Below are positions 13,624-52,805 of a stretch of DNA of 64,000 nt, piece after piece. Under the pieces are notes generated by a model that had not been told where the DNA came from, ran no database searches, and saw only the letters and a program-made list of their open reading frames with translations. A program made the position numbers and the translations under genes. Within the stretch, counting starts at the first letter, position 1, and every line of letters starts with the position of its first letter. Source of the stretch: Escherichia phage vB_vPM_PD06; the sequence record NC_052653.1; one strand, 5' to 3'.

Positions 13624-14817
13624 TTACATCTCCTTATTATATACTAATTTGCCACCATGTTGTGTAATAATTTCTTGAAGATTTTCCAAATCAGAAACAC
13701 TTACTGTTTCTGTATAACCGTCTTTCAACTCTCTTTCCGTTAAAATACCAGTTTTTAATTTTTTCTTTATAGCTCTTTCAGCAGCCTTACATTGTTTCAC
13801 TGTGCTAAAATCATATAAACAAATACGCTCCATAAAAAACATATTACAACTATTTTGACTATTTAATCGCCTATCACTATCTTTAGCTATACCAAACTTA
13901 AGAGCCACTATAATATCATTATCTTTAACAATATTAATATATAATTGCTGTTGATTATGACCAGCACACTGTGGACAACCTTGACCGAGGCTTAATAAGT
14001 TATTAGCCCTCCCTGTCTGTTCCCCATGCACAAGACAAAGATATTTAAACTTACCGTGACTTCTAGACGGTTTACCGATCCAACCTACCCAGACATACCC
14101 TTGCCCTTCTACTTCCTTTTTTACCCTATAGGTGATCTGGTCTTCTGTATACCGATAGTTCCCACAACGACACGGAATGCACCCTCGTTTAAGGTTATTT
14201 CCTTCAGAGTAAAATTTACCATCACAAACACCTGCTTGAACATATTCATCATGAGAGCAAACAGGACATTCAACCATCCAGATACTATGCCTGCATCCTT
14301 TACTCCGTGTTCCTGTGTTAGTGAAGATAGTGCCTTCCTTAAATTTCCCTGTAGAAAAGAAATCTGCAATATGTTGATCGTCGGACATTGTTAGTGCCTT
14401 CCTTGTATTCTCCCCCCTACATTGTGGACAACCTCGACCGCCTTTAAATTGATGAATTGCTGTACTTTGCCATCTATTCCCACAATGGCACAACAAATCA
14501 AGTTTTGTTTTATTCCCTTTCCATTCTCCAACGTACCCTAACACCTGATACCCCTTCTTCTGTGCTATCTCTTCCAAGATCGGCAATTCTGTTTCCCATG
14601 TTAACGGCTTCTTACCAGAACAGATAGGACAACTGTTACCGTGCTTGAAATTACTAATACTACAAGTCTTCCATTCATGTTCCTGCCTACAGCGTAGAAT
14701 CATTTTCGTATCACAACCTATAAACGGTTCAACATATCCTAGGATCTCAATCCCTTTATTATTCGCAATAGGTTGACACTCTTCTTTATATTGTTCCCAT
14801 GATTTTGGTGCTGCCAT
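13624..14817 (-). CDS. Multi-zinc-ribbon protein with C-terminal T5orf172-like domain
   Basis: Five CPxC knuckles (SCPICSG, GCPQCRG, ECPVCSH, GCIPCRCG, GCPQCAGH); C-terminal ALKFGIAKDSDRRL resembles T5orf172/GIY-YIG-like. Confidence 0.5.
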   Translation of the reverse strand: MAAPKSWEQYKEECQPIANNKGIEILGYVEPFIGCDTKMILRCRQEHEWKTCSISNFKHGNSCPICSGKKPLTWETELPILEEIAQKKGYQVLGYVGEWKGNKTKLDLLCHCGNRWQSTAIHQFKGGRGCPQCRGENTRKALTMSDDQHIADFFSTGKFKEGTIFTNTGTRSKGCRHSIWMVECPVCSHDEYVQAGVCDGKFYSEGNNLKRGCIPCRCGNYRYTEDQITYRVKKEVEGQGYVWVGWIGKPSRSHGKFKYLCLVHGEQTGRANNLLSLGQGCPQCAGHNQQQLYINIVKDNDIIVALKFGIAKDSDRRLNSQNSCNMFFMERICLYDFSTVKQCKAAERAIKKKLKTGILTERELKDGYTETVSVSDLENLQEIITQHGGKLVYNKEM

Positions 14818-23139: not shown

Positions 23140-23616
23140 ATGTCTAAACGTTTTGGTCGTAATCAAAAAAGAAAGTTAAGTGCTCAACTAGCAGCTTTGC
23201 AAAAAGAGGTTAACACTTTACAAAAAAGTGTTTGTGAACTTAAGGAACAAAACCAACTTGAAAAAGAGTGTATTCAGCTTACACAGGAAGTTATTGGGGA
23301 GTATTTCCCTTCACTAATTCCTAAGAAGGTGGCTCTTAGGGAAAATCTACCTTTTACCTTATCCTTGATGCAAACAAGGGATAGATTCCAAACTGAAACT
23401 GATGATTTGATGTTTGCAATGCATCAATTACGTGGTTTAGAATATACAGCACAAGTGGATAAACTTCGCAACATGTTATATGTGCGGGTAGAAACACCTA
23501 AAGGTGAAACAGTAGCGTTTAATTATAATTTCCAACAGCTACCTGATCATATTATTGAACAAATTTTAAAACGAGATTTTGTTCCTATGCTTGTTAAACA
23601 AATTAAGAGAGGTTGA
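23140..23616 (+). CDS. Hypothetical coiled-coil protein (158 aa)
   Basis: Six-frame ORF. Confidence 0.65.
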   Translation: MSKRFGRNQKRKLSAQLAALQKEVNTLQKSVCELKEQNQLEKECIQLTQEVIGEYFPSLIPKKVALRENLPFTLSLMQTRDRFQTETDDLMFAMHQLRGLEYTAQVDKLRNMLYVRVETPKGETVAFNYNFQQLPDHIIEQILKRDFVPMLVKQIKRG

Positions 23617-23617
23617 A

Positions 23618-26392
23618 ATGGCTAAGAAAGAGTTGAGTTTTACTCCAACAGAAGAGCAAACAGCTATTAAGGAGGCTTTTCCAGATCATCGGTTTTTAAC
23701 TATCCAAGCTAAATCTGGATCAGGAAAAACGTCAACACTTTATTTGCTGGCTAACAGTACAGAAGATCGCATTCTTTACTTAGCTTTCAATAAAAGCATG
23801 GCAGAAGAAGCACGGCGTAAGATGCCACCAAATGTAGAATGCCGTACATTGCATTCCATTTGCTATCAATTCCTGGATCATCGTTTACGTGCAAAACTGT
23901 CCCGACCAGAAGGACAGTATGTTAACGTTGCAGGTACAGGTAGTGAGATAGCAAAGAAATTTAAGATTAATAATCTTATTGATAAACGAGGGAAAACACT
24001 TTTAACTCGTGCTATGATTGGTTTAATGATCAAGCAAACCGTAGGTAAGTTTGAATTTTCGGATGATCCTTTTATCAGCCGTAAACATTTTCCTAGTGTA
24101 CATCTTGCAGATATTAAAAGAAAAGGTATTAACGAACACAAACTAATTACAGAAGTAGTTAAGTATGCAAAACAATTGTGGCGAGAGCGCATTGATCCTA
24201 ACACAGATACTTTGATGACGCATGACACCTATGTAAAATTGTTTGAATTGTCTGGTGCTGATCTTGGTTATGACATTATTTTTGGGGATGAATTCCAGGA
24301 TGTTAACCCTGCATTCTTGTCTATTCTGCGGAATGCTAAATCTGCCAAACAAATTGTGGTAGTTGGTGATGAATTCCAATGTGTATCAGAAAACACGGTA
24401 CTTAATACCGAAAATGGTCAGGTTACAATGAAAGACCTGCAAATCGGTGATAAGGTAGAGTCTTATTCTAACGGTAAAGTTACATTTAGAAAAGTAACAA
24501 ATAAGACTTTATCTACACGTACAAAAGGTAGGAATATTATTACTGCTAAAGGTAAGACTTTAGATATGACACATAACCATCGTATTTGGGCTTCACCTTA
24601 TGTTCTGAAAGATGATCAGATGGTGGTATACCTAATGTGGAGAAAAGATTTAGGTTTCCGAGTAGGGATCACTAACAAATTCGATGATAAAGAAGGTTTT
24701 TCTAAACTGGGGCAACGTACACGTTCTGAAAAAGCACAGAAGTTGTGGGTGTTGGATATTGTTGAAAACCGTGAAGCTGCTATGGAAAAAGAAATGGCAT
24801 ACAGTTTACAATATGGCATTCCTACTTGTGTATTTGAAGCAAGTTCACGCGGTATTAATCAAGAAAGGATCAACAATATCTTTGAACAATTCGGACAAAA
24901 TGGTTTTAAACTTTTAGAGGATAAAGACTATCATTTTGCTTATCCACATTGGCACAGCATCAATTGTGCAGTAGATGCAAGAAAAATGTTAACAGTGACT
25001 TTGCGAGCACAAGGTTGTAAAGGAACACAAGTTAGCTTTGAGTGGACAGAAAGTGAAATGCCAATCTATGCCTCACTCATTGAAGCAGGTGTAAGCGTAA
25101 GTGTTGCTAAATTGGAAGGTCGTTACCGTGTACGTAAATATTTCAATTCTTATCGTGAAGCATTGAGTTTTGCACAAAAGATCCTTGAAATAGTTCCGTT
25201 TGCATCTTTAAAAGAATGCATGTCCTCTGTGAACACTGCCAAATATAATTTAATTCCGGCAGCGGGTTTGTTTAAAGGCATGTCTGTGTTAGTAAAAGAT
25301 GGTGATACTGTAACGGCAGAAGAGATTGTGGACATTGTAGATAGTGAGGGTATCTATTATGATATTGAAGTAGAAGATACTGCTAACTTTTTTGGCAATG
25401 AAATTCTTAGCCACAACTGCATTTATCAATTTAGAGGTAGCTCTAATATGATGATTGAAACAGCTAAGTATGGGGCAGAGCTTCCATTAACTGCTTGCTT
25501 CCGTTTTGGCCCCAAAGTGGCAAACATTGCAAATATGATTTTAAGTGATAAAGAACCTTTGCGTCATCCTTTGGTTGGTAAAGGCTTTGATACTGTAGTA
25601 GGTAGCTACAAATCAGATGTTGTAGACTATACAAAACCTTACACTATCATCTTTCGCAAGAATTTAACCTTGCTTATGGAGGCAATGGATCGTATTGCAG
25701 ATGGGGAAGAAATTATTATTAACGTAGATACCAGGGATTTTATCTCTATGGTGGATAGTGTTAATGCCCTTCGGAGAGGAGATATTGAGAAAGTAAAACA
25801 TGAAACTGTATTACCTTACGCAGACTGGAATGAATTTGTTGAATGTGCAGAGGCTGATCCAGATGCTAAACGCTTGTTAAACATTGTAGTTTCTGGTAAG
25901 GCAAATACTATAGCACATACACTTAGAACGCATAGAAATTCTCCTACAGCAAAAGTCACACTGACTACAGCACATAAGTCTAAAGGTTTGGAGTGGGATC
26001 AGGTTATTGTTGCTAATGATTTTCCTTCCAACTATGATAAAAAGACTGGTGAATGGGTAGGACTAGAAGAGGCAGAGCGAAACCTACTGTATGTAGCGCA
26101 CACCCGTTGTGTTAAATGCTTACAATGGAATACAACCGTACAGGAGATTATAGATATCAACCGTGTTGCAACAGAGAAAGTACCCACAAGCCCTACTTTA
26201 CCGATCAATGGTATTAAACTTGGTGTATTTGGCGCTGGCACATCTCGAAAAACTGTAGAAAAATTTGTTGCAGATTCTTTTGATGGTAACTATAATCATG
26301 CACAAGCATATGAGAGTTGGCTAGAGGAAGGTGAAGGTGATTTCTTAGGTGAAATAAATCTTTTACCAGACATAAATAAACTGGTAAACTAA
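23618..26392 (+). CDS. SF1 UvrD/Rep-like DNA helicase, intein-containing precursor
   Basis: Walker A AKSGSGKT; DEFQD; motif III split (VVGDEFQ / CIYQFRGSS); motif V TTAHKSKGLEWD; motif VI LLYVAHTRC. Confidence 0.8.
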   Translation: MAKKELSFTPTEEQTAIKEAFPDHRFLTIQAKSGSGKTSTLYLLANSTEDRILYLAFNKSMAEEARRKMPPNVECRTLHSICYQFLDHRLRAKLSRPEGQYVNVAGTGSEIAKKFKINNLIDKRGKTLLTRAMIGLMIKQTVGKFEFSDDPFISRKHFPSVHLADIKRKGINEHKLITEVVKYAKQLWRERIDPNTDTLMTHDTYVKLFELSGADLGYDIIFGDEFQDVNPAFLSILRNAKSAKQIVVVGDEFQCVSENTVLNTENGQVTMKDLQIGDKVESYSNGKVTFRKVTNKTLSTRTKGRNIITAKGKTLDMTHNHRIWASPYVLKDDQMVVYLMWRKDLGFRVGITNKFDDKEGFSKLGQRTRSEKAQKLWVLDIVENREAAMEKEMAYSLQYGIPTCVFEASSRGINQERINNIFEQFGQNGFKLLEDKDYHFAYPHWHSINCAVDARKMLTVTLRAQGCKGTQVSFEWTESEMPIYASLIEAGVSVSVAKLEGRYRVRKYFNSYREALSFAQKILEIVPFASLKECMSSVNTAKYNLIPAAGLFKGMSVLVKDGDTVTAEEIVDIVDSEGIYYDIEVEDTANFFGNEILSHNCIYQFRGSSNMMIETAKYGAELPLTACFRFGPKVANIANMILSDKEPLRHPLVGKGFDTVVGSYKSDVVDYTKPYTIIFRKNLTLLMEAMDRIADGEEIIINVDTRDFISMVDSVNALRRGDIEKVKHETVLPYADWNEFVECAEADPDAKRLLNIVVSGKANTIAHTLRTHRNSPTAKVTLTTAHKSKGLEWDQVIVANDFPSNYDKKTGEWVGLEEAERNLLYVAHTRCVKCLQWNTTVQEIIDINRVATEKVPTSPTLPINGIKLGVFGAGTSRKTVEKFVADSFDGNYNHAQAYESWLEEGEGDFLGEINLLPDINKLVN
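24380..25417 (+). mobile_element. Intein (346 aa) in helicase motif III
   Basis: Starts Cys after DEFQ with N-terminal splicing blocks (CVSENTVLNTENG..., TxxH in DMTHNH); ends SHN followed by Cys of CIYQFRGSS. Confidence 0.7.
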
Positions 26393-38400: not shown

Positions 38401-39504
38401 ATGTCCAGTCCTTTTATCAGTGCCGTAAAAAGCAAACCGTCTGAAACGAGTGTATTCACGGCAACAACAGAAAAAAGTAAGTCTTTGTTTGCTCCAAGTG
38501 CTATGGATGCAAGCCCTGTATATGCCCCTGCTGTTGCACGACCTGTACAAATGCTGCCTCCAATGTCTCGTGAAGAGATTGAACAGGTTGGTGCTGATGC
38601 AGGACTTACTCTTCGTAACCTTAATGCGGAAGTGCTTAAACACCAGCGTTCATCTCAGGGAGATGAAATGAGTGAGCGTTTAACCGCACTTATTAAGCAA
38701 GCAAAGCAACTTGATCCTAATTCTATTAAACAATCTAAAGGTTTAGGTAAGCTAGTTAAGAAAGTATTAGGTATGAAAGAAGATTTGTTTGGAGAATTTG
38801 ACACCATCAATAATCGTATTGAAGGTTTGGTAAAGACACTCCAAACAGACTTGAAAAAAGAAGAAGATTCTTTACGATATCTGCAACGTTTAGAAGAGGC
38901 TATTGCAAAATATGCTCTTAGCTTAAACAGGGATATAGAGCTTCTAACAGCTACTTATGAAAAAGAAGAAGTTCACCTTAATACACTACCTGAAAATGAA
39001 GTAGAAGAGCGTCAACGTACTCGTGATACTATGGATCTGCTTGAAATTCGTATTGCAGACCTGAAAGCCTTGCGTTTACTGTGTGTTCAGATGGGGCCAC
39101 GTGTACAAAGTATGCAGAAAGTATCTGCAAGTTTGATGCGATCAGCCCGTAATATTGTGAATAATGTTATTCCTGCTTACTCTGCAAACTTTTCTATGTA
39201 TATTGAAAGTCTACGCCAGAAGAAAGCAGCCGATACACAGAACAATGTACTGAATGAATTTAATGCTGCTATTGCAATGGGTAGTGATCTGGCTGCACAA
39301 AACCAAATTGAAGCTACACAACTTGCTAATCGTCAAGTATTGGATATTGAGACATTACGTCGCGATCAAGAAAACTTAGTTAAAATGTTGGAAGAAACTA
39401 ATCGGATCAACACTGAAGCCCGTGCTGCTCGTATTGATTACATTCAAGAAGTGCAATCTCTTGAAGATGGTATGATTCAAACTGTTAAACGTGGTCTACT
39501 TTAA
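38401..39504 (+). CDS. TelA-like (toxic anion resistance family) coiled-coil protein
   Basis: About 367 aa, extended coiled-coil, size and pattern resemble TelA/KlaA; GGAGG RBS. Confidence 0.45.
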   Translation: MSSPFISAVKSKPSETSVFTATTEKSKSLFAPSAMDASPVYAPAVARPVQMLPPMSREEIEQVGADAGLTLRNLNAEVLKHQRSSQGDEMSERLTALIKQAKQLDPNSIKQSKGLGKLVKKVLGMKEDLFGEFDTINNRIEGLVKTLQTDLKKEEDSLRYLQRLEEAIAKYALSLNRDIELLTATYEKEEVHLNTLPENEVEERQRTRDTMDLLEIRIADLKALRLLCVQMGPRVQSMQKVSASLMRSARNIVNNVIPAYSANFSMYIESLRQKKAADTQNNVLNEFNAAIAMGSDLAAQNQIEATQLANRQVLDIETLRRDQENLVKMLEETNRINTEARAARIDYIQEVQSLEDGMIQTVKRGLL

Positions 39505-49490: not shown

Positions 49491-52400
49491 ATGGGAGCTT
49501 TTACTTTCGACATTGAAAGTAACAACTTGCTTAATGACGAAAGTGTAGATTACTTGGCAAGTCCATATCGTTTAAAAGATAGTTTTGCAATGCACTGTAT
49601 TGTGTGCGAAAGTCATGATACTGGAGAGATTATTGCTTTCCATGATGGTGATAAATATCTTTTCGATGGTCGTCCGTATATTGAGACTGACGGAAAGTAT
49701 GAATACCGACTGGAGGAATATGAGCATTTAGAATATACCCATTTCCCTCTTAAAGATTTTCCTGATTTTGTAAATGGAACAGGTAAATTTAAAGGTAATT
49801 CAAACTATAAAATTACCAAAGTAGTTGGACACAACATCATTAACTTCGACTTACTGGCAATTAAATTATTTTTTAAACTCAACTACAGTATTAAGTACAA
49901 TACTTGGGGTAATAGTAACATTGAAATTTGTGATACTATGATCTTAAGTAAGACACTAAACCCTGATCGCTTCGGTGGTCATAGTCTGGCAGAGTTATCT
50001 AAGAAAGCTGGAGGGGATGTTAAAATTGATTTTAGAAAAAACATTCCTGAAACTGAAAGATTTAGAACATTTGCAGCAGATATGCTGTATTACTGTATTT
50101 ACGATAACAAAGCTAACACCGCAGTGTTCCGTTATTTGATGGAAGAGTGGGGTGATTATAACAAGTGGTCTGAACCATTTAACTTAGAACAACGTGTAGC
50201 TGATATTATTACACGTCAAGAGCACCGTGGCTTTGCTTTCAATATGAAACAAGCAGAAGATAATATTCGTGATCTGGATGCTCGAATGGAAGCATGTCGT
50301 TTAGAGGCAGAACCTGTGCTACCTCCTAAACCTGCTACTAAAGGTTATTTGAAATCATTCATTCCACCTAAACTACAGTTTAAAAAGAATGGTGAGCCTT
50401 CAAGTAACATGATAAAGTTTGCAGAGAAACATTCTGGTGAACTTGTACAAAAAGAAGATGGTTGGTGGTTATTTGCATTAGGTAAAGAGTTTAAACTACC
50501 TATTCCAGCAGAAGAACCTATTTGTGATCCTACAGTACCTGCTACTTTAGACGACACTACACATATTAAAAATTGGTTAGTTGGTTTAGGTTGGAGTCCA
50601 TCTGAATATAAAGATAAAGATATCACTCTTAAATCTGGCACTAAGATTAAGAAAGATGAAGCACAAATGGAGAAAGCTATTCGTGACTATGTTGATCAAA
50701 CATTAGCATCTAACTTCTGCCAGGATAGATGTGATCATCTGGAGTGCACACCAGAAACTTTGGAATGGAAACTAAGAGATCGTATTGCTAAAGCTAAAGG
50801 TCGTGGTGTTAAAGTGCTTACTAACCCTTCCTTTACAAAAGGGCAAGAGAAGGATATTTGTCCTAACTTGGAAGCACTGGGTGAAAAGTTCCCTTATGCT
50901 ACGCAGATTGTGCAGTATCTTACGTATAAACATCGTAGAAACTCTATTCTAGGTGGTGGTGCTGATTGGGAAGAGGATGAAGAGGATTACGATAAAGGTT
51001 ATCTGGCGGCAGTAAGAGCTGATGGTCGTATACCAACTCCTGCTGCAACGTGTGATGCAGCTACGTCTCGTATGAAACATAGGTTAGTAGCAAATATCCC
51101 ACGTGTAACATCTCTGTACGGATATGAAATGCGTAACTTATTTGGTGTAGAAGTTCCAAAATACTTCCAAATTGGTTATGACTTTGATTCTCTTGAGGCA
51201 AAAATAGAATCACACTACTGTGTACCTATGGATGCACAAGCACTAACCCGTAAAGGTTGGGTTGGTTATCACGATCTACAAGAAGGGGATGAAATCTTAG
51301 GATATAACCCAGAAACAGGACTTAAAGAATGGACTAAAGTAAAAGGTAAGGTCTTCTATAAAAATAGTAAGACGTTTGAGATTAAAGGAAAATCCCATAC
51401 TTATCGTGCAACAGCAGATCACCGTTGGTATGTTAATACTCGTAGTACAGGGAATACTTATGTGCCTAAAGTCAGAACAACTGCCGAGCTTTGCACAGGA
51501 GATAACATTATTTGTAATGCTCCATTTAACATGGAACAAGATCAAGTAAATAGTTTAACTTCTGTTCAACAAGGTAAATGGGATGTTCCGTGGGTAGAAC
51601 GTGTAGTTAATATGTCTCATGCCGAGCGTGTGGCTTTCTTGGAAGGTTTTTTGATTGCGGATGGTTACTGGCACAAACATAAACAAAAACCTGTTTGGCG
51701 CTGGGCGCAGAACCCAGGAGAACTTTTTGAAGCAGCCTTAACTGCCTCATACCTGGTTCATGGGGGTAATATTTCTGTAGCCTTCAATACGAAAGACCAG
51801 AAAGTAAAAGTGGCAACGTTGGCTAACCGCTCTCACATCCCTGTTCAAAGTCTGACTATTGAAGAATGGGGTGTAGAAGATGTTTGGTGTCCACAAACAG
51901 AACTCGGTACATGGGTTATGCGTCAGAAAGACTGCATCACGATTACAGGGAATTGTTGGCGGTACGAGCAGGAACCACACGAATATTGTAATGCTCTATT
52001 GTTGGAAAAACCTAATGATGTTCATACAATGATGGCTCGACGTATTTCTGACACTATTGGTCGTAAGTTTGAACGAAGCCCTGCTAAATCTGTTAAGTAT
52101 GGTATTACTTATGGTGCTCAAGCTGCAAAAGTAGCAAAAACTATAGGTAGTGATATGTATACAGGACAGCTTGTATACGATGCTTTCTGGGAAGCTGCAA
52201 AACCTCTTGCGCTTCTTAAAGAACGTCTGCATGACTTTTGGGTTAAAACAGGTAAGAAATACATTCTTGGTATTGATGGTAGGAAAGTACCTACACGATC
52301 TGCACACGCAATACTTAACTCTCTGTTCCAGAGTGGTGGTGTTATTTGTGCAAAAAGAGCAATGGTTATCTACGATGATCTTATCGAAGAAGAAGGATTA

Positions 52401-52805
52401 GCTGTTGACTTTTTTGTTGATGACTGGAAAAATAAGTCATTCGTTCAACAAATGATTGCATATCACGATGAAGCACAGCTTGAAGTAACTCGTGATCTGG
52501 TGCATTTTAAATGGTTCTCTAAAGAATCTTTAGGTTGGACTCAAGTTGATGATCCAGAAGAACAAAAGAAAATTGATAAAGAATGTTTGGATAAAGTTAA
52601 TGCCTGGAAAGAAGAGGAAGAGAAACGTACTGGCAAGATTTGGGCTAACGTACATGAATCTCCGAAAGGTGGTTGGTTTACAGCCTACAGTCGTGCTGGA
52701 GAATTAGCATCTATCGCTGTTAATAAAGCTGGTGAGTATTACAATCTTAATGTACCTCTAACTGCTGGTTACGATGTTGGTAGTTCATGGTCAACTTGTC
52801 ACTGA
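49491..52805 (+). CDS. Family A DNA polymerase, intein-containing precursor
   Basis: Exo I TFDIES; motif A GYDFDSLEAKIESHY; motif B RSPAKSVKYGITYGAQ; motif C IAYHDEAQ. Confidence 0.85.
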   Translation: MGAFTFDIESNNLLNDESVDYLASPYRLKDSFAMHCIVCESHDTGEIIAFHDGDKYLFDGRPYIETDGKYEYRLEEYEHLEYTHFPLKDFPDFVNGTGKFKGNSNYKITKVVGHNIINFDLLAIKLFFKLNYSIKYNTWGNSNIEICDTMILSKTLNPDRFGGHSLAELSKKAGGDVKIDFRKNIPETERFRTFAADMLYYCIYDNKANTAVFRYLMEEWGDYNKWSEPFNLEQRVADIITRQEHRGFAFNMKQAEDNIRDLDARMEACRLEAEPVLPPKPATKGYLKSFIPPKLQFKKNGEPSSNMIKFAEKHSGELVQKEDGWWLFALGKEFKLPIPAEEPICDPTVPATLDDTTHIKNWLVGLGWSPSEYKDKDITLKSGTKIKKDEAQMEKAIRDYVDQTLASNFCQDRCDHLECTPETLEWKLRDRIAKAKGRGVKVLTNPSFTKGQEKDICPNLEALGEKFPYATQIVQYLTYKHRRNSILGGGADWEEDEEDYDKGYLAAVRADGRIPTPAATCDAATSRMKHRLVANIPRVTSLYGYEMRNLFGVEVPKYFQIGYDFDSLEAKIESHYCVPMDAQALTRKGWVGYHDLQEGDEILGYNPETGLKEWTKVKGKVFYKNSKTFEIKGKSHTYRATADHRWYVNTRSTGNTYVPKVRTTAELCTGDNIICNAPFNMEQDQVNSLTSVQQGKWDVPWVERVVNMSHAERVAFLEGFLIADGYWHKHKQKPVWRWAQNPGELFEAALTASYLVHGGNISVAFNTKDQKVKVATLANRSHIPVQSLTIEEWGVEDVWCPQTELGTWVMRQKDCITITGNCWRYEQEPHEYCNALLLEKPNDVHTMMARRISDTIGRKFERSPAKSVKYGITYGAQAAKVAKTIGSDMYTGQLVYDAFWEAAKPLALLKERLHDFWVKTGKKYILGIDGRKVPTRSAHAILNSLFQSGGVICAKRAMVIYDDLIEEEGLAVDFFVDDWKNKSFVQQMIAYHDEAQLEVTRDLVHFKWFSKESLGWTQVDDPEEQKKIDKECLDKVNAWKEEEEKRTGKIWANVHESPKGGWFTAYSRAGELASIAVNKAGEYYNLNVPLTAGYDVGSSWSTCH
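51219..51953 (+). mobile_element. Intein (about 245 aa) with LAGLIDADG-like motif, after Pol motif A
   Basis: Begins CVPMDAQALTRKGW; TxxH block TADH; LEGFLIADGYW; ends ITITGN + Cys (non-canonical GN; C-terminal boundary approximate). Confidence 0.65.

Follow-up and report, generated by a model that had tools for sequence, protein, structure and literature searches.

Escherichia phage vB_vPM_PD06, a phi92-like myovirus of the genus Justusliebigvirus, carries a gene for a UvrD-like helicase that is interrupted in motif III by a long in-frame insert. What is this insert, and what in it could make it move from phage to phage? To our knowledge, the endonucleases of inteins have so far been of the LAGLIDADG or HNH type, apart from a few out-of-frame or split arrangements. 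Analysing a 64,000-nucleotide (nt) stretch of this phage (record NC_052653.1, one strand; hereafter the window), we found that the insert is an intein already known from related phages, and that its putative homing module is undescribed and belongs to a widespread family, whose best candidate fold is that of the GIY-YIG nucleases.

The host protein is a UvrD/Rep-like superfamily 1 (SF1) helicase, as an earlier note on this DNA, written from the sequence alone, had proposed. The Pfam models UvrD-helicase (45.6 bits), UvrD_C (42.2 bits) and AAA_19 all score above their cut-offs, and the protein matches phrog_1967 ('DNA helicase') at E 9e-163. The helicase signature set is present (Walker A, motif II, UvrD_C), and excision of the insert restores motif III. 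The gene is 99.6% identical to that of vB_EcoM_AMO3598 and 97.4% to that of phi92. The maximal open reading frame (ORF), 23579..26392 on the plus strand, opens with a TTG at 23579 and gives the 937 amino acids (aa) counted in the earlier note; that frame exists, but the likely product is shorter. Almost certainly, the start codon is the ATG at 23618, which is preceded by an AGAGAGG Shine-Dalgarno sequence, lies 1 base after the TGA of the upstream gene and corresponds to the start that GenBank gives for bas62_0080 of phage JohannJBalmer; the TTG was dropped on these grounds. Translation from this ATG therefore yields a precursor of 924 aa, with the intein at aa 255-600, and a spliced helicase of 578 aa. 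The parts of the gene are the following:

23618..26392, plus strand: the whole helicase precursor gene, UvrD/Rep-like and intein-containing, 924 aa plus stop (ORF, ATG, Shine-Dalgarno sequence, Pfam and PHROG matches, bas62_0080 start)
23618..24379, plus strand: N-extein, aa 1-254, with Walker A GSGKT (aa 34), motif II DEFQD (aa 224) and the final VVGDEFQ
24380..25417, plus strand: intein, 346 aa, ~39.3 kDa (splice residues, Hint models; GenBank mat_peptide in JohannJBalmer and PaulScherrer)
24380..24604, plus strand: N-terminal lobe of the Hint domain, intein aa 1-75, with Cys1 and block B T64-H-N-H67 (NCBIfam and Pfam, AlphaFold2)
25235..25417, plus strand: C-terminal lobe of the Hint domain, intein aa 286-346, with blocks F and G and H345-N346 (intein_Cterm, PDB sequences, AlphaFold2)
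25418..26392, plus strand: C-extein, beginning with the +1 Cys (TGC 25418-25420) and CIYQFRGSS, the second half of motif III, followed by the UvrD_C motifs

The 1038-nt insert encodes 346 residues, from CVSENT to EILSHN, between VVGDEFQ, which ends at 24379, and CIYQFRGSS, which begins at 25418. The earlier note had described these same limits, and each splicing residue it named could be placed at codon level: the starting Cys1 is TGT at 24380-24382, the TxxH of block B (T64-H-N-H67) occupies nt 24569-24580, the terminal H345-N346 nt 25412-25417, and Cys+1 is the TGC at 25418-25420. Block B is kept as (T/S)xNH in the spliced relatives. In scans with hidden Markov models (HMMs), Pfam Hint reached 30.3 bits against a cut-off of 29.7, Hint, Hint_2 and NCBIfam intein_Nterm matched intein aa 1-73, and NCBIfam intein_Cterm scored 20-23.3 bits, above its cut-off of 15.6; the C-terminal lobe also matches the PDB sequences of the gp41-1 and DnaX mini-inteins. 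An AlphaFold2 (AF2) model of the intein, made with 8 relatives, predicts a Hint fold with a predicted local distance difference test score (pLDDT) of 87 and a predicted template modelling score (pTM) of 0.85, the pLDDT being 92-97 in the N-terminal and 91-95 in the C-terminal lobe. Once joined, the exteins measure 578 aa. Phages alia, ESCO9, Nernie, Paula and JLBYU50 have uninterrupted helicases of just this length, and these are 98% identical to the joined exteins. As for homologues that might keep the insert as ordinary protein sequence, the intein-less alleles looked at run uninterrupted across the site, reading GDE(Y/F)Q-S-IYQFRGS in a protein of 578 aa, and it is thus motif III that the insert splits. 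With splice residues, site, Hint matches and exact excision taken together, the insert therefore has all the sequence-defined features of a class 1 intein. On this reading, 24380-25417 is a genuine in-frame intein of class 1 within motif III, and it very probably splices. Weighing against it, Pfam Intein_splicing matches the insert end to end (E 3e-8) at 34.2 bits, slightly below its cut-off of 35.8, intein_Nterm stays at 20.6-21.7 bits under a cut-off of 24.5, and both AF2 models rest on an alignment of 8 sequences. The GC content is 0.36-0.38 in the intein and in its flanks alike, and no sign of foreign origin was seen in the base composition of the intein compared with the flanks.

The intein as such had been recorded before. 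The GenBank entries of JohannJBalmer (Bas62, MZ501084, bas62_0080) and PaulScherrer (Bas63) name an 'intein-containing UvrD / Rep family helicase precursor' with a mat_peptide 'intein', and the annotation of phage ZYD is alike ('intein-containing UvrD'). The element is the same: the gene is 97.6-98.5% identical at the nt level and the boundaries agree, the mat_peptide being one codon longer than the intein described here because it includes Cys+1. With the intein annotated in near-identical phages, the headline of the earlier note is therefore correct and not new. The BASEL paper reports that inteins were precisely identified and says nothing further on them (PMC8594841), and neither this paper nor the two records give an endonuclease type, evidence of mobility or a family context. 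UvrD has been named among intein hosts (PMC4760082). A 2024 paper states that inteins are unreported in coliphages (PMC11162368), which is contradicted by the GenBank annotations of the BASEL phages and by the phage studied here. None of the papers found in our literature search describes the endonuclease type of the helicase intein.

What, then, lies between the two Hint lobes? The ~210-residue central module (aa 76-285) falls into three segments:

24605..24850, plus strand: central subdomain A, intein aa 76-157, beta-beta-alpha-beta-alpha, candidate GIY-YIG-like nuclease core
24851..24979, plus strand: two-helix segment and linker, intein aa 158-200, with the conserved GxNQxRxxxIFxxFGxNG (AF2, relatives)
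24980..25234, plus strand: central subdomain B, intein aa 201-285, small and of alpha/beta type, where variation and recombination are greatest

The ratio of nonsynonymous to synonymous substitution rates (dN/dS) is 0.05-0.23 in the module and at most 0.06 in subdomain A in close pairs; by this measure the module is under purifying selection and not decaying. The conserved residues of subdomain A are Y84 (24629), R94 (24659), G96, R113 (24716), E117 (24728), W123 and E138 (24791), and relatives of 25-45% identity keep Y84, G92, R94, G96, R113, E117, W123, E138, S142, P148 and P189. The two-helix segment is common to the inteins of SPO1 and of a Streptococcus suis phage, and in the models it is possibly a DNA-binding helical element. 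In fold comparisons subdomain B resembles SUI1/eIF1 and the C-terminal DNA-binding domain of T4 MotA, and we infer that it is a DNA-recognition module, a role that fits its being the most variable part and its absence from the SPO1 intein.

A word-index search found 2 relatives and a profile search 6, and the family came into view only when an HMM was run exhaustively against 1.84 billion cluster representatives (clusters at 50% identity), which gave 1612 matches at E<1e-3, 298 of them at E<1e-30. Nearly all the full-length matches (n=107) end in (S/T)HN followed by (S/C)IYxFRG, and the host proteins were UvrD-like helicases in 7 of the 7 cases tested. To judge from these matches, the central-module family is large and dedicated to the motif III site of UvrD-like helicases. 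No usable Pfam, NCBIfam or PHROG family came out for the central module when the copy here and 24 relatives were scanned, and its profile found no match among PDB sequences at E <= 10.

Two relatives were set in unusual hosts or company. The helicase of Klebsiella phage KP13-16 (1198 aa; contig L008, 740-4336) carries two inteins, one in motif III that is 60% identical to the copy here, and another of a different type directly after the Walker A GTGK, which ends in THN before a Thr and has a GDGYL stretch that may be LAGLIDADG. In the S. suis prophage phiJH1301-2 (L010, 1125-3236), an intein with Hint and subdomain A sits in a ParB-type N6-adenine methyltransferase, with WQHEP before its first Cys and THN before CLYGWKQ; this C-terminal flank resembles the helicase SIYGWRG, a likeness that hints at target switching through flank similarity.

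The earlier note had recognised neither a LAGLIDADG nor an HNH motif in the insert and had supposed a divergent homing domain or one of another family. This agrees with what we found, the central module being a distinct conserved family. Compared with the canonical LAGLIDADG inteins PI-SceI, PI-PfuI, PI-PkoII and TliVMA, it has neither the LAGLIDADG motif nor an alpha-beta-beta-alpha-beta-beta-alpha core, and the beta-beta-alpha-metal H-N-H finger of HNH enzymes is lacking as well, by which both types are ruled out. Endonuclease genes nested in another frame or antisense occur in some actinophage inteins (2025 survey); such a gene was rejected here because the overlapping ORFs measure only 61-77 aa. 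The remote homology search that the note had suggested for an endonuclease fold was answered in part: it gave the topology and residue pattern of GIY-YIG, with weak fold and profile scores.

In the AF2 models, subdomain A consists of strands 81-88 and 92-98, helix 111-116, strand 121-128 and helix 131-145, followed by the helical pair at 161-181 and subdomain B at 205-282, and this beta-beta-alpha-beta-alpha order is that of the GIY-YIG fold. Y84, invariant in 25 diverse relatives and predicted in beta1, is aligned by hhalign with the GIY strand of I-TevI, within one residue of Y6. R113 opens helix 1 and E138 lies in helix 2, both nearly invariant, and in an enriched hhalign run E138 aligns to the column of the catalytic Glu. 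Against Pfam-validated GIY-YIG sequences, hhalign puts beta1, beta2 and the Glu helix in register (P 0.003-0.014, probability 3-11%; the best of 30 column shuffles reached P 0.017). Foldseek against BFVD returned at least 9 GIY-YIG proteins in the top 40 (E 0.03-0.12), and PF01541 matched 1 of 25 relatives (E 0.002) and not the sequence here. Subdomain A shares with the GIY-YIG enzymes I-TevI, I-BmoI, SLX1 and Hpy188I the Tyr of beta1 and the Glu of helix 2, and its xVG in beta2 and the Arg at the start of helix 1 fall at comparable places; it differs in being embedded in frame in an intein, in lacking a NUMOD or zinc-finger DNA-binding tail, and in the weakness of the similarity scores.

Some details speak against the assignment. 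Beta2 reads (F/Y)93-R94-V-G96, with the Gly conserved and an Arg at the position of the YIG tyrosine, and four positions after R113, where His or Tyr stands in known GIY-YIG enzymes, there is an invariant Glu (E117). When 120 database homologues were added to the profile, the hhalign probability fell from 11% to 5%. In Hpy188I, a proven GIY-YIG enzyme, Lys73 replaces the YIG tyrosine (PMC3045582), and Arg94 is therefore plausible, compatible with the motif although not canonical. A GIY-YIG fold is our leading hypothesis for subdomain A, and on these models we would give it an even chance; since the support from topology and register is consistent but weak, we use GIY-YIG-like as the name of that hypothesis and do not claim membership.

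Does the intein move? About 33 records of the Justusliebigvirus type, with helicases at least 95% identical, carry it, and 20 records of the same type have an uninterrupted junction. Outside the genus, Phapecoctavirus DIJ07P2 carries an intein with 95-99% nt identity to the copy here. Its helicase gene is 99% identical to that of the intein-less Phapecoctavirus tuntematon until 3 nt before the insertion site; 3' of the intein, 273 nt (25418 to ~25690) are 98-100% of the donor type, where tuntematon is only 64-73% identical, and beyond ~25690 the gene is tuntematon-like again. The donor sequence in DIJ07P2 extends no more than 3 nt upstream of the intein and 273 nt downstream of it, and we read this as co-conversion on one side, such as homing started by a DNA break classically leaves. 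In Klebsiella phage KP2025 the exteins are 70-80% identical at the nt level, with synonymous sites saturated, and the intein is 93-100% identical outside subdomain B, the boundary of the transfer coinciding with the intein ends. Together, the exteins of DIJ07P2 and KP2025 are 70-86% identical to those here. The subdomain B segment of KP2025 (24998-25240) is a mosaic of 48-88% identity, with a dN of 0.23 and a dS of 0.86, which suggests that the putative DNA-recognition domain was swapped by recombination between intein variants. A similar trace of invasion may be kept in the phage itself, where the two sides of the intein stand out:

24346..24379, plus strand: upstream flank, 10 mismatches in 34 nt against the intein-less alleles of the genus, read as a co-conversion footprint of invasion
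25418..25468, plus strand: downstream flank, 16 mismatches in 51 nt against the intein-less alleles, including the Ser to Cys change at +1

Outside these flanks, mismatches to the intein-less alia number ~1 per 60 nt. By these comparisons, the same intein has passed into a Phapecoctavirus and into a Klebsiella phage; it is probably still mobile, and the balance favours homing encoded by the intein itself. It counts against the last point that co-conversion-like tracts could in principle also be left by ordinary recombination between phages, with no site-specific cut involved.

Evidence of another kind comes from relatives outside inteins. About 10 family representatives are free-standing ORFs of 300-400 aa, without Cys1, with NQ (Gln for the block B His) and without the terminal Asn, in which the central residues are kept. 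The 3 that could be located are these intein-derived ORFs on metagenome contigs:

L005, 5001-6002: free-standing ORF P0005
L011, 4001-4918: free-standing ORF P0007
L012, 3340-4392: free-standing ORF P0004

All three lie directly downstream of an uninterrupted UvrD-like helicase gene (483-499 aa), at spacings of 46, -4 and 11 nt, and in each of the neighbouring helicases the +1 residue of motif III is Ala, which is unable to support splicing. By analogy, their placement is the arrangement of free-standing homing endonuclease genes of phages. That they keep the module beside the helicase gene argues that it is useful to the element without splicing.

We propose the following course of events. 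The 924-aa precursor would be translated with motif III broken and would presumably be inactive as a helicase, as should follow from motif III being essential for SF1 helicases. Cys1 would undergo an N-S acyl shift and the thioester would pass to Cys+1; Asn346 would then cyclise, His345 assisting, and an S-N shift would complete the ligation. The products would be a 578-aa helicase with VVGDEFQ-C-IYQFRG restored, Cys standing for the usual Ser, and a free intein of 39 kDa. In a mixed infection, the free intein would act as a homing endonuclease and cut the motif III region of intein-less helicase alleles, subdomain A serving as nuclease, the helical pair beside it, and subdomain B in DNA recognition, and the cut allele, as it is repaired by recombination, would receive the intein together with part of its flanks. 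To judge from the strongly one-sided 3' tract of DIJ07P2, the cut may lie downstream of the insertion site, and this would suit a GIY-YIG-type enzyme cleaving at a distance. Splicing, DNA cleavage and the GIY-YIG assignment of subdomain A are steps that we infer. As a whole, the explanation by a class 1 intein that splices and homes by means of its central module seems likely to us; its fullest form, in which an in-frame divergent GIY-YIG nuclease defines a large motif III family, homes between coliphage genera and has repeatedly spawned free-standing genes, is put forward tentatively.

Several other explanations compete with this one. The intein could be active and mobile with a central module whose nuclease fold is unrelated to GIY-YIG and represents a new family, the beta-beta-alpha-beta-alpha likeness being coincidental. 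The low scores and the residues at positions 94 and 117 leave room for this, and the strand order and register speak the other way; we regard it as rather unlikely, the most serious of the alternatives nonetheless. The module might instead be no nuclease at all but a DNA-binding or structural domain, an aid to folding or splicing or a tether to the helicase, and the intein would then spread passively, through general recombination in co-infection or by another phage endonuclease. Such a role would accord with the failure of any nuclease model to match the central module, with the likeness of subdomain B to the nucleic-acid-binding folds of eIF1/SUI1 and of the MotA C-terminal domain, and with the frequency of phage recombination. 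It is hard to reconcile, however, with the retention of the charged R94, R113, E117 and E138 both in relatives of 25-45% identity and in free-standing copies that do not splice, with transfer boundaries that in DIJ07P2 are no more than 3 nt from the site and in KP2025 coincide with the intein ends, and with free-standing copies that adjoin their putative target gene, a position also taken by homing endonuclease genes of phages. We therefore consider a module without nuclease function improbable.

The intein might also be a domesticated regulatory switch, in which conditional splicing, governed by Cys1/Cys+1 redox state or by DNA binding, times the activation of the helicase, mobility being secondary. 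Both nucleophiles are indeed cysteines, motif III is essential in SF1 helicases, and Novikova et al. 2016 (PMC4760082) saw a functional meaning in the clustering of inteins in ATPase motifs. Yet the intein is missing from at least a third of phages that are otherwise 98% identical, and is therefore dispensable; its transfers and co-conversion tracts follow the pattern of a selfish element, and no sequence feature is specific for regulation, so that this seems quite improbable. Least credible of all is a non-splicing or decaying Hint-containing insertion that is tolerated in the helicase or inactivates it: two intein HMMs do fall slightly below their curated cut-offs, but the canonical splice residues are all intact, the Hint lobes have a dN/dS of 0.04-0.18 against KP2025, the exteins are 98% conserved with intein-less alleles, and no frameshift or stop occurs in ~35 intein copies even though an essential motif is broken.

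Returning to the spliced, self-homing intein that we favour, one of its closest known counterparts is the intein of the UvrD-type helicase of SPO1 (gp34.33) and CampHawk, Bacillus phages of a different family (PMC3868849). It occupies the same motif III site, with LVGDDDQ before its first Cys and THN before SMYSFRGA, and has the Hint lobes, subdomain A and the helical segment in common with the copy here, to which it is 30% identical across intein aa 54-193; it differs in its length of 275-285 aa, in lacking the ~85-residue subdomain B and in having Ser and not Cys at +1. The fractured genes of Dassa et al. 2009, in which a free-standing GIY-YIG or Vsr-like endonuclease gene separates the two parts of a split intein, are alike in joining a phage-borne intein to a non-LAGLIDADG endonuclease in replication genes, and a route for the acquisition of the domain was proposed there; the intein here, in contrast, is contiguous, with the module in frame and no separate endonuclease ORF. 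The yeast HO endonuclease is free-standing and intein-derived (PMC3384342), and P0004, P0005 and P0007 likewise keep Hint and have lost splice residues. The likeness concerns these relatives and not the copy here, and they differ from HO in the type of endonuclease, in being phage-borne and in lying beside a helicase gene.

Older papers state that GIY-YIG domains are not known inside inteins (PMC1564403; PMC2677866), and the variants in the 2025 survey are in-frame HNH, antisense LAGLIDADG or Vsr-like and out-of-frame EndoVII-like enzymes, an in-frame GIY-YIG not being among them. If our assignment is right, inteins would have a third in-frame type of endonuclease, GIY-YIG-like and lodged in a contiguous intein, and this would support the repeated capture of free-standing phage endonucleases by inteins. 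The system is tractable, as 98%-identical E. coli K-12 phages with the intein (Bas62 and Bas63) and without it (Bas61) are available in a public collection. Natural transfers with mapped tracts, together with the free-standing derivatives, make the transition from intein to free-standing endonuclease directly testable, and the compact 39-kDa module may be of interest for protein engineering and site-specific nucleases.

The window holds a second intein, a 245-aa insert at 51219-51953 (plus strand) in a family-A DNA polymerase (ORF 49491..52805, 1104 aa). Its junctions are KIESHY before CVPMDAQ and CITITGN before CWRYEQ, it has a LAGLIDADG-like stretch, ERVAFLEGFLIADGYW, and the polymerase of JohannJBalmer, at 859 aa, is exactly 245 shorter. 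HMM support is weak (LAGLIDADG_3 at E 0.084, no Hint match), and the insert ends in Gly-Asn, not His-Asn. The scan for further inteins also brought out an ORF at 13624-14817 (minus strand) with four CapR-homology domain repeats (E 1e-38) and one at 38401-39504 (plus strand) that is TelA-like (toxic anion resistance; E 5e-34).

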